A stretch of 62,311 bases of DNA, filler included. It is 5 parts of 5 records of this genome, joined end to end, with 100 filler letters (N's around TTAATTAATTAA, not from the genome) between each part and the next. Parts side by side here need not be neighbours in the genome. Positions count along the whole stretch, not along the records: positions 9,878 to 25,816 come from DRR723986_5747; 4 more parts are not named here. One strand, written 5' to 3'. This document shows positions 9,778 through 11,563 of the stretch, one piece after another (within the stretch, counting starts at the first letter, position 1; each line of letters begins with the position of its first letter). Below the pieces are notes generated by a model. That model made no database searches and was not told the DNA's origin. It saw only the letters and a program-made list of their open reading frames with translations. A program made the position numbers and the translations under genes.

Positions 9778-9877
9778 NNNNNNNNNNNNNNNNNNNNNNN
9801 NNNNNNNNNNNNNNNNNNNNNTTAATTAATTAANNNNNNNNNNNNNNNNNNNNNNNNNNNNNNNNNNNNNNNNNNNN
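9778..9877. other. Artificial contig linker
   Basis: 100 nt of N with central TTAATTAATTAA (stops in all six frames). Confidence 0.99.
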
Positions 9878-9878
9878 G

Positions 9879-10871
9879 TGGAACTGGCCGATGAACCAGA
9901 TCACGCTCAAGGTCGGCGCCGCTGCCGTTGCCGGGTGTACCATGGTTCTGAAACCATCCGAGCAGAGCCCGCTGAATGCCATGATCTTTGCCGAAATGAT
10001 GGACGAGGCAGGATTCCCAGCCGGTGTCTTCAACCTCGTGAACGGTGATGGTGTTGGTGTTGGCTCACAGCTATCGGGTCACCCGGACGTGGACATGATC
10101 AGCTTTACCGGATCGACTCGCGCCGGGACTGCGATCTCAAAAAACGCGGCTGACACCCTGAAAAAGGTTCACCTCGAACTGGGCGGCAAAGGCGCGAACG
10201 TCATCTTTGACGACGCCGACGAAAAGGCCGTCAAACGGGGTGTTCTGCACATGATGAACAACACCGGTCAAAGCTGTAACGCGCCATCGCGGATGCTGGT
10301 TCAAAAGGGAATCTATGATCAGGCCGTTGAAACCGCCGCCGCTGTCGCCAGCGCCGTCACGGTTGGTGTCGCGTCAGAAGAAGGCCGCCATATTGGCCCG
10401 GTTGTAAACGAACTCCAGTTCAACAAAATTCAGGACCTGATCCAAAAGGGCATCGACGAAGGCGCCAAACTGGTTGCAGGCGGCACAGGGCGTCCCGATG
10501 GCGTCAATCAGGGCTTTTTCGTCAAACCAACTGTCTTTGCCGATGTGAACAACCAGATGATCGTCGCCCGCGAAGAGATCTTTGGCCCCGTTCTGGCAAT
10601 GATCCCGTTCGAGACCGAAGAAGAAGCGATCGAGATTGCCAACGATACGCCCTACGGTCTGACCAACTACGTTCAGACCCAAGACCCAGCCCGTGCCAAC
10701 CGTCTGGCCCGTCAGCTGCGGTCCGGCATGGTTGAAATGAACGGCCAATCCCGTGGCGCAGGTGCGCCTTTTGGCGGCATGAAACAGTCCGGCAACGGTC
10801 GCGAGGGCGGTCTGTTCGGTCTCGAGGATTTCCTTGAAATCAAAGCCGTCGGCGGCTGGGCCGCTGAATAA
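9879..10871 (+). CDS. Aldehyde dehydrogenase (5'-partial)
   Basis: WNWP, KPSE, FTGST, LELGGK, GQSC (catalytic Cys), EEIFGPV. Confidence 0.96.
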   Translation, partial: WNWPMNQITLKVGAAAVAGCTMVLKPSEQSPLNAMIFAEMMDEAGFPAGVFNLVNGDGVGVGSQLSGHPDVDMISFTGSTRAGTAISKNAADTLKKVHLELGGKGANVIFDDADEKAVKRGVLHMMNNTGQSCNAPSRMLVQKGIYDQAVETAAAVASAVTVGVASEEGRHIGPVVNELQFNKIQDLIQKGIDEGAKLVAGGTGRPDGVNQGFFVKPTVFADVNNQMIVAREEIFGPVLAMIPFETEEEAIEIANDTPYGLTNYVQTQDPARANRLARQLRSGMVEMNGQSRGAGAPFGGMKQSGNGREGGLFGLEDFLEIKAVGGWAAE

Positions 10872-10890: not shown

Positions 10891-10925
10891 AGAAAGCCGC
10901 CCCATTGGGCGGCTTTCTTGTTTTT
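10891..10925. terminator. Intrinsic terminator between convergent genes, possibly bidirectional
   Basis: AGAAAGCCGCCC-catt-GGGCGGCTTTCT followed by a T-run. Confidence 0.85.
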
Positions 10926-10943
10926 GGGATCATGCACATGATG

Positions 10944-11378
10944 CTATTCCGGCATCACGACCAATTGCGGTTCCCCATCCGAGGTTTTGCGCGTTGATCG
11001 GCCATCCCAGCCGATTTCGCCACTCACCCGCTGACGGAACGACGAAAAGCTATCGAATTTCACCACATCCACCGGCTGGTCAAAATGCAGCGTAATACGG
11101 CGGTGCGAACCATCGGCAATGTTCGACAACGCGCGAACTTCACCCACAAACGGTTGACCCAGATAGCGCCCGCGCACCCGGTCCCCAACCCGCAACAACA
11201 GCTTGTTCCCAGCCATCGCGTGCAATGTGTTCCAGTCCCGCACGCCGTGCTGGGTCGCAACCAGCTCAAGCGAGTCGCTATGGCTTAGCTGAACGCCAGT
11301 GCCACGCAGTTTTTCCCGCAGACGTTTTGCCTGCGCTTTCAGCTCCGTCACCGGAGCGATATTTTGAATACTCATCAT
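10944..11378 (-). CDS. 'Glyoxalase superfamily' protein (Glyoxalase_8-like helical N-domain plus beta-rich C-domain)
   Basis: N-terminal LKAQAKRLR...LSHSDSLELVATQHGVRDWNTL is the signature of this family. ATG 11378 or 11375 follows GAGG. Confidence 0.8.
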   Translation of the reverse strand: MMSIQNIAPVTELKAQAKRLREKLRGTGVQLSHSDSLELVATQHGVRDWNTLHAMAGNKLLLRVGDRVRGRYLGQPFVGEVRALSNIADGSHRRITLHFDQPVDVVKFDSFSSFRQRVSGEIGWDGRSTRKTSDGEPQLVVMPE

Positions 11379-11425
11379 CCTTTGCCTCGTTTCTTTCAAA
11401 CGGACACGCGAATAAAATGGACGGG

Positions 11426-11528
11426 GCTCGCATTGCCACCCGGGCGCGCCGTGAAAGGGGCGTCAGATGTATCAAACAGGGTTTCACCAAAGCCAAATGG
11501 CCGCGAGCGGCAGGGGACCCAAACCTGA
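11426..11528 (-). ncRNA. Candidate structured 5'-leader RNA (nested three-helix stem)
   Basis: Minus-strand pairings: GCUCGC/GCGAGC (11503-11508 with 11426-11431), GCCAUUUGG/CCGGGUGGC (11493-11501 with 11435-11443), GUGAAA/UUUCAC (11482-11487 with 11451-11456). Lies between the promoter and the RBS. Confidence 0.6.
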
Positions 11529-11534
11529 GCCCGT

Positions 11535-11563
11535 GATCTAGGAACCCGCTTGGCGTCTGTCAA
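11535..11563 (-). promoter_or_regulatory. Sigma70-type promoter
   Basis: TTGACA (11563-11558), 17-nt spacer, TAGATC (11540-11535). A -10 box lacking the final T is common in Rhodobacteraceae. Confidence 0.75.

Follow-up and report, generated by a model that had tools for sequence, protein, structure and literature searches.

What function is served by the long leader that precedes a small gene of the PF20066 (Glyoxalase_8) family in the 62,311-nucleotide (nt) stretch of DNA examined here, which is referred to throughout as the window? The coding sequence (10944..11378) specifies 144 amino acids plus a stop codon and lies immediately downstream of a conserved RNA motif of ~145 nt (11380..11526); unless indicated otherwise, all features described are on the minus strand. 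A preliminary description of the locus had envisaged an uncatalogued, conserved and structured leader tied to genes encoding a common N-terminal domain, and this part of its interpretation stands, whereas two of its three helices and its proposed switch, in which the leader pairs with the ribosome-binding site, do not. The conserved structured leader RNA is almost certainly genuine, and represents a previously uncatalogued RNA family. With respect to function, the leader is tentatively regarded, at a little short of an even chance, as a new riboswitch-type cis regulator of translation, for which we infer ligand sensing, action in cis and ON logic.

Evidence for the structured nature of the leader stems from comparison of the regions upstream of relatives of the window protein, which were collected in a scan of one genome per species. 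The scan yielded 78 loci, distributed among Rhodobacterales, Rhizobiales/Hyphomicrobiales, Rhodospirillales-type and Sphingomonadales lineages, and 230 nt of upstream sequence were read at each. A conserved leader was evident by eye upstream of all but three. Alignment A1 (n = 58) comprised the window together with 57 loci of <90% identity, taken from the 75 with a GGTGAA anchor. RNAalifold, applied to the MAFFT alignment, recovered a single long-range helix, GCUCGC/GCGAGC, which is paired in 58/58 leaders and at one position of which CG occurs in 28 leaders, UA in 21, UG in 8 and GU in 1. Column-wise pair statistics on the same alignment missed helices with indels; reading of the alignment by eye disclosed four further helices (P1, P1a, P2 and P3) that covary between lineages. 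P1 is formed between the strand just 5' of CCCCUGCC and the bases directly after GGUGAA, and appears variously as UCGGGU/ACCCGG, UCAGGAC/GUCCUGA and GAGAG/CUCUC. Comparison of the regions upstream of homologues, as advocated in the preliminary description, returned a conserved structured leader with compensatory changes. The three nested helices put forward in that description fared unequally: its P1 (GCUCGC/GCGAGC) survives the comparison, and is a pseudoknot relative to the new P1 and P3 since the loop of P3 holds GCGAGC, whereas its P2 and P3 fail, with 47-73% of cells paired and little compensation.

The window copy of the RNA scored 117.8 bits with covariance model R1 and 119.5 bits (expectation value, E, 1.5e-31) with model R2, and its parts can be followed from the 5' end. 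The 5' strand of P1, UUGGGU (11517..11522), is partnered by ACCCUG (11477..11482), with one U-U mismatch in this copy. The highly conserved junction CCCCUGCC (11509..11516), in which C, C, G and C are invariant in the 58 aligned leaders, leads to the 5' strand of the pseudoknot, GCUCGC (11503..11508), the partner of which is at 11426-11431; these three segments (11516-11509, 11508-11503 and 11431-11426 in the direction of transcription) had been singled out in the preliminary description and are all present. The P1a hairpin, GGCC-AUUU-GGCU (11491..11502), is variable in length, is 83-95% paired with 4/4 pairs compensated, and is missing in loci L069 and L075. It is followed by the junction UGGUGAA (11483..11489), of which GGUGAA is invariant in 58/58 aligned leaders. 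A linker that differs in length and sequence (11451..11476), and which carries extra hairpins in L041, L059, L070 and L078, joins this first domain to a second, the 3' hairpin. The lower stem of the hairpin, P2, pairs 11444..11450 with 11403..11409 in a register that was set by hand, and in its upper stem, P3, GGGUGG (11436..11441) is partnered by CCGUCC (11419..11424), with 80-98% pairing. The P3 loop, CAAUGCGAGCC (11425..11435), contains the pseudoknot 3' strand GCGAGC (11426-11431), as judged from the alignment and pair counts. The 3' strand of P2 is also a possible anti-Shine-Dalgarno strand according to the local minimum-energy fold, the Shine-Dalgarno sequence (SD) itself being read as GAGG at 11385..11388. 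Leaders from Neorhizobium (L274, L280, L285, L290, L295 and L303) contain ~20-30 extra nt immediately following the 3' strand of the pseudoknot, which are possibly an added hairpin.

Pair counts were made with the pseudoknot added to the nested helices, and with 500 shuffles for each set of sequences. Among 76 distinct sequences, 89.1% of cells were paired, versus 77.8% in shuffled alignments and 28-46% when partners were slid, and 26/28 pairs showed changes on both sides. The equivalent values were 87.1% versus 72.7% and 31-47% for 85 sequences, 90.9% versus 70.1% and 33-41% for 28 sequences that include Pseudomonas, and 97.8% versus 87.6% and 31-46% for 77 distinct Rhizobiaceae sequences. 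In each of the four sets the observed value was reached by 0/500 shuffles, by any measure, with the caveat that related sequences may beat shuffles without structure. The pseudoknot helix, which is included in no covariance model, is paired in 76/76, 85/85 and 27/27 sequences (100% of cells) and in 99.1% of cells in the Rhizobiaceae set, with 5/6 pairs changed on both sides in the 85-sequence set. All six pairs of P1 are changed on both sides, with 77-85% of cells paired and 99.5% in the Rhizobiaceae set; P2 is 86-99% paired, with 6/6 pairs compensated in the 85- and 28-sequence sets.

Searches of Rfam 15 gave no match in 11380-11563 at E up to 10, and none of 20 diverse loci contained a match at gathering score, in keeping with the earlier statement that the leader belongs to no named Rfam family. 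A literature search, from the reach of which subscription journals were largely excluded, found no published description of this RNA or of Glyoxalase_8/PF20066. A motif cluster located upstream of glyoxalase, monooxygenase or NmrA-like genes is mentioned in a recent preprint (bioRxiv 10.64898/2026.10.21.760802), and concerns a different gene set; the 5.14 million motif clusters of that work could include the present RNA.

Model R1, which was built from the nested helices only, gave one match in the window, and R2 a single significant match in the 62 kb; the E-values of both models are rough. R1 matched 76/77 of the loci given (all but L074), plus L077, making 77/78 Glyoxalase_8 loci; in L077 the RNA is situated ~1.5 kb upstream, with a MATE gene lying between it and the Glyoxalase_8 gene. 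A loose sequence pattern applied to the whole collection identified 120 loci, in 3 of which R1 found the RNA, and in the remaining 117 (~0.9 Mb), which serve as a negative control, R1 matched nothing. R1 matched 13/151 sampled genomes of the class to which genome G001 belongs (Alphaproteobacteria, judged by locus record titles), and R2 matched 12/151 genomes sampled from its phylum. A true copy was met by chance, via a false pattern locus, in one Pseudomonas genome. In the class sample around that genome 2/151 scored, these being the centre genome and one weak, probably false match (E 4.1e-4), and in the genus sample 19/151 scored, counting the centre genome and G538, the latter contributing to no other result. 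The weak matches L315 (E 9.6e-4) and L316 (E 4.1e-4) were taken as false on account of there being no N-domain (defined below) or MATE gene downstream. The RNA is present in marine, soil and plant-associated bacteria.

The genes that follow the RNA are uniform at one end of their products, most of which open with a three-helix unit of ~55 residues, hereafter the N-domain. At 41 loci that were found RNA-first, the first gene after the RNA was read in each case and domains were assigned on representatives. An N-domain gene came first in 38/41 and a MATE pump gene in 3/41. The 38 comprise 15 Glyoxalase_8 genes, 18 in which the N-domain is joined to PF19581 (a VOC domain), two with a ClpX zinc finger (one frameshifted), one with a Lon substrate-binding domain (E 3e-43) and two with other sequence. 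The leader thus precedes non-homologous genes, N-domain and MATE genes alike: the MATE-first loci (L084, L136 and L223) are monocistronic and lack a cis N-domain gene, and in L083 and L221 one leader is common to an operon of MATE and Glyoxalase_8 genes. The distance from the end of the motif to the start codon is 0 to ~100 nt in 41/41 RNA-first loci. At L096:1195-1503 (minus strand) the N-domain reading frame is interrupted, with the ClpX zinc-finger motif continuing in another frame, the break being a frameshift, a sequencing error or the sign of a decaying gene. Genes for an O6-methylguanine DNA methyltransferase and a HIT-family protein were each seen once directly 3' of an N-domain plus VOC gene (L219:2219-2809 and L094:2213-2641).

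Approaching the association from the protein gave the same picture. For VOC-type N-domain genes, the broad N-domain alignment A7 was too diverse for a locus search and the narrower A8 was used; this search gave at least 565 stretches, and its best-scoring 80 loci all belong to Rhizobiaceae, among them R. leguminosarum, R. etli and R. phaseoli. Of these best 80 loci, 80/80 carry an RNA match (E 4.6e-16 to 9.7e-6) that runs up to the start codon, and all 80 frames encode the N-domain plus a bleomycin-binding-like VOC domain. An N-domain profile run against the same 151 alphaproteobacterial genomes as the R1 sample found 15 genes in 14 genomes. Since 13 of these correspond to R1 matches and R2 detects the RNA immediately upstream of the remaining two, RNA and N-domain are coupled in 15/15 cases in a sample chosen by neither partner. 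In Pseudomonas, 11/11 loci have both the RNA and an N-domain gene. The claim in the preliminary description that leaders of this type are also found before other genes sharing the N-terminal domain is borne out by 77/78 Glyoxalase_8, 80/80 Rhizobiaceae and 15/15 sampled loci.

The leader appears to be served by its own sigma-70-type promoter, the position of the transcription start being likewise a prediction. In the window, a predicted -35 hexamer, TTGACA (11558..11563), and a predicted -10 hexamer, TAGATC (11535..11540), are separated by 17 nt, exactly as had been noted previously, and would place the start at ~11528, some 150 nt before the ATG at 11378. This site is absent from the output of a consensus promoter scan, the rule of which for the last base of the second hexamer excludes TAGATC. 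Across 176 leaders, TTGACA with at most one mismatch occurs in a 50-nt interval upstream of GGUGAA in 95, mostly 72-77 nt upstream, and most of the remainder have CTTG-type boxes instead; upstream of the Glyoxalase_8 loci, TTGAC stands at a near-constant ~73-79 nt before the invariant GGUGAA. In alphaproteobacteria and in Pseudomonas alike, the start predicted from the promoter elements coincides with the 5' edge of P1. The Pseudomonas copies (L317-L327 and L313) have an extended -10 element (TGTGTATCAT-like) without a TTGACA box, 10-20 nt upstream of the RNA.

A riboswitch-type mechanism that would accommodate these features can be outlined as follows. The first domain is a three-way junction of P1, P1a and the pseudoknot helix, with the invariant junction strands CCnGCC and GGUGAA, and the second is the long P2/P3 hairpin, the loop of which pairs with the junction through GCGAGC/GCUCGC. 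A putative ligand would bind and stabilise the docked fold, P2 included, and P2, once stabilised, would hold its 3' strand off the ribosome-binding site so that the gene would be ON. The candidate regulon, namely proteins with a common N-domain on varied C-terminal domains (bleomycin-binding-like VOC, Tudor-like barrel, ClpX zinc finger and Lon substrate-binding) plus MATE pumps, suggests by its domain set and its pumps that the system responds to xenobiotics or to damage.

The expression platform was considered by computing local folds, each running from the 3' strand of P2 to the sixth base after the start codon, for 57 leaders (A1 minus L039, which has no aligned start codon). The SD is paired (at least two bases) in 49/57 of these, and in 38/57, most of which are close roseobacter relatives, its partners include bases in the 3' strand of P2; the minimum-energy local fold of the window leader has 11403-11406 paired with GGCA of the ribosome-binding region. 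Because the SD pairs with the P2 3' strand, formation of P2 and sequestration of the SD would be mutually exclusive, and for that reason the folded, presumably bound, state would be the ON state. The switch proposed originally, in which the 5' strand of the former P1 pairs with the ribosome-binding site, showed no cognate preference (12/23 representatives) and is not supported. Rhizobiaceae VOC-type leaders (A9) have one or two copies of CAUCC(UU) in the linker, complementary to the GGAAGGAUG ribosome-binding region, and this lineage may, to judge from that complementarity, use a different anti-SD strand. A reading of GTTC-N7-GGTC in Rhizobium-type linkers as a LexA box was dropped on inspection, other lineages being without it.

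Several considerations speak for a riboswitch. Conserved structure with covariation, as sought in an aptamer, was found in four sequence sets; the core is complex and deeply conserved; the genes downstream are non-homologous and include a transporter, with the MATE leaders being monocistronic; and the promoters are strong and the platforms varied. Guanidine-I (ykkC)-type orphan and efflux riboswitches are similar in having a conserved and complex leader, transporter and detoxification genes and varied platforms. However, the leader described here matches no Rfam model, and nearly all of its downstream genes share one protein domain. The ZTP (pfl) riboswitch likewise has two sub-domains that are separated by a linker of variable length and tied by a pseudoknot, but its conserved nucleotides, helices and genes are different, and the window leader has no Rfam match at E up to 10.

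Other observations weigh against the riboswitch reading. The enzymes of the regulon offer no hint of a ligand, and the RNA is carried by essentially every N-domain gene tested (15/15, 77/78 and 80/80), which fits a protein partner equally; such coupling is tighter than is known for most riboswitch-gene pairs. At the platform, the energies of the local hairpins are ordinary in the 57 leaders, the pairing of SD with P2 3' strand is contributed mostly by close roseobacter relatives, and cognate anti-SD pairing exceeds the median non-cognate in 16/23 dissimilar representatives, which is no better than shuffled SD segments. The 166-nt leader taken alone has a single-sequence fold no better than shuffles (z +0.53), and the counts for the nested helices lean towards those helices because alignments A4, A5, A9 and A11 were fitted to them. 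Finally, both the transcription start and the leader transcript are predictions from sequence.

The window protein is a full-length member of PF20066 (E 2.8e-56; 190 bits versus a cut-off of 23.7), with residues 8-142 aligned to profile positions 5-141 of 143; Pfam and structure queries spanned 10944-11381, and so include one extra leading residue. An AlphaFold2 model (40 sequences) has a mean predicted local distance difference test score (pLDDT) of 89, with helices at residues 11-27, 34-44 and 50-58 followed by a five-stranded barrel. Foldseek returned no match in the PDB to the whole protein at E <= 0.001. A full structure scan with the C-domain gave middling scores, to 6if4 (Tudor; Z 7.3, root-mean-square deviation (rmsd) 2.4, 59 residues aligned), the UvrD/PcrA C-terminal Tudor domains (Z 6.1-6.3) and CarD (Z 5.8). 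The C-domain (10944-11204) is thus predicted to be an all-beta Tudor/SH3-like barrel and not a VOC fold, and no match to PF00903 or PF19581 was found in the window protein. Relatives carry the same N-domain with PF19581 (Glyoxalase_7), and the closest match of their VOC domain is ZbmA, a zorbamycin-binding protein (E 4e-5), with a weak likeness to BLMA-family bleomycin-binding models, below their cut-offs. Given the predicted Tudor/SH3-like fold, the designation 'glyoxalase superfamily' looks to be a misnomer for this gene, and the family name of PF20066 (Glyoxalase_8) is misleading in its case. A Protein Atlas search returned PF20066 clusters only.

The N-domain (~11205-11378), when folded alone, has a pLDDT of 84.5 and resembles DUF1244 best (3fyb; Z 5.1, rmsd 2.5, 55 residues aligned), with no solved fold standing out; a sequence search of the PDB at E up to 1 yielded no relative. 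The first helix of the N-domain is basic. Residues 9-57 show a weak likeness to the N-terminus of the NCBIfam 'DNA helicase' model PRK05973 (E 0.0063; 15.6 bits versus a cut-off of 156), and by this likeness the N-domain may also head RecA-like ATPases.

The foremost alternative, possible if rather unlikely, is that the leader is an operator for this domain, with free N-domain binding the folded leader to set translation of its own mRNA and, in trans, of the MATE mRNAs, much as in ribosomal-protein leaders, where the real cellular target of the protein competes; promoter, leader and N-domain would then constitute a travelling cassette. The leader does lie upstream of the gene for the candidate binding protein, and the coupling is one-to-one across two proteobacterial classes (15/15 N-domain genes in 151 genomes, 77/78, 80/80 and 11/11 in Pseudomonas). 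The N-domain is always at the extreme N-terminus, beside the leader, whatever the C-terminal part, its first helix is basic, as noted, and 3/3 checked genomes with a MATE leader (G004, G269 and G296) also hold an N-domain gene with the leader. Ribosomal-protein autoregulatory leaders and the ThrRS operator similarly place a structured leader at essentially every gene of a family and control translation initiation. However, the N-domain is not a known RNA-binding domain, with no known RNA-binding family matched in Pfam and NCBIfam scans, and is fused to non-ribosomal domains, and the leader is also found before MATE genes. Indeed, strict autoregulation in cis is hard to square with the three monocistronic MATE genes, which have the leader but no accompanying N-domain gene. 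Moreover, a regulator mostly of itself needs an extra rationale, and the covariation-supported fold, if it is the bound state, leaves the SD free, which is a poor fit to repression, although steric blocking is possible. We would regard as doubtful the wider proposition that leader and N-domain form a new family of RNA-binding domain with its operator, a portable self-regulating cassette that also acts on MATE pumps in trans; equally doubtful is that drug-binding, Tudor-like, ClpX-zinc-finger and Lon substrate-binding domains were fused onto such a cassette.

Improbable, but deserving of mention, is control by some other trans factor, such as a small RNA or an unrelated RNA-binding protein, or by a physical signal such as temperature, or by RNase processing, or else release of the 5' part of the leader as a stable small RNA with targets of its own. 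The fold and its conserved single-stranded junctions would suit any specific binder, and the strong consensus promoter elements suggest control that is mainly post-transcriptional. However, the RNA-first loci read showed no conserved neighbour that could encode such a factor, there is no terminator between leader and gene in the window, and in the Glyoxalase_8 and Rhizobiaceae loci the RNA always directly abuts the start codon.

A leader peptide with ribosome-mediated attenuation, as in some antibiotic-resistance genes, is very improbable despite the efflux pumps and drug-binding-like proteins among the downstream genes and an AUG inside GGCAAUGCG in the window, since that AUG, the sole recurrent one, is ACG or AGG in 28/82 scored leaders, 3/85 and 4/28 leaders have no ATG at all, and the variable-length indels and compensatory changes fit RNA structure and not coding.

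With regard to the locus itself, the open frame as listed is 10944-11399, opening at an upstream TTG; to judge from relatives and from the ribosome-binding site, the true start is probably the ATG at 11378, giving 144 residues. A family-11 glycosyltransferase gene lies upstream of the gene and is divergently transcribed, and an aldehyde dehydrogenase gene lies downstream, converging on a two-way terminator-like hairpin (10891..10918, both strands) with a 12-bp stem. At window positions 9778-9877, TTAATTAATTAA between two runs of N is a six-frame stop linker of the type used for contig joining. The N-flanked linker indicates that the window is a concatenated draft, in which the aldehyde dehydrogenase frame (9891-10871) is cut at its 5' end.

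If the leader is a riboswitch, it would constitute a new class that is present in the experimentally tractable Rhizobium, roseobacters and Pseudomonas, and its association with efflux pumps and with bleomycin-binding-like proteins could lead to a stress or antibiotic signal not recognised before. Should the N-domain bind the leader instead, a new RNA-binding domain and its operator would be at hand. Either reading provides the first functional handle on Pfam families PF20066 and PF19581, which are annotated as glyoxalase superfamily.

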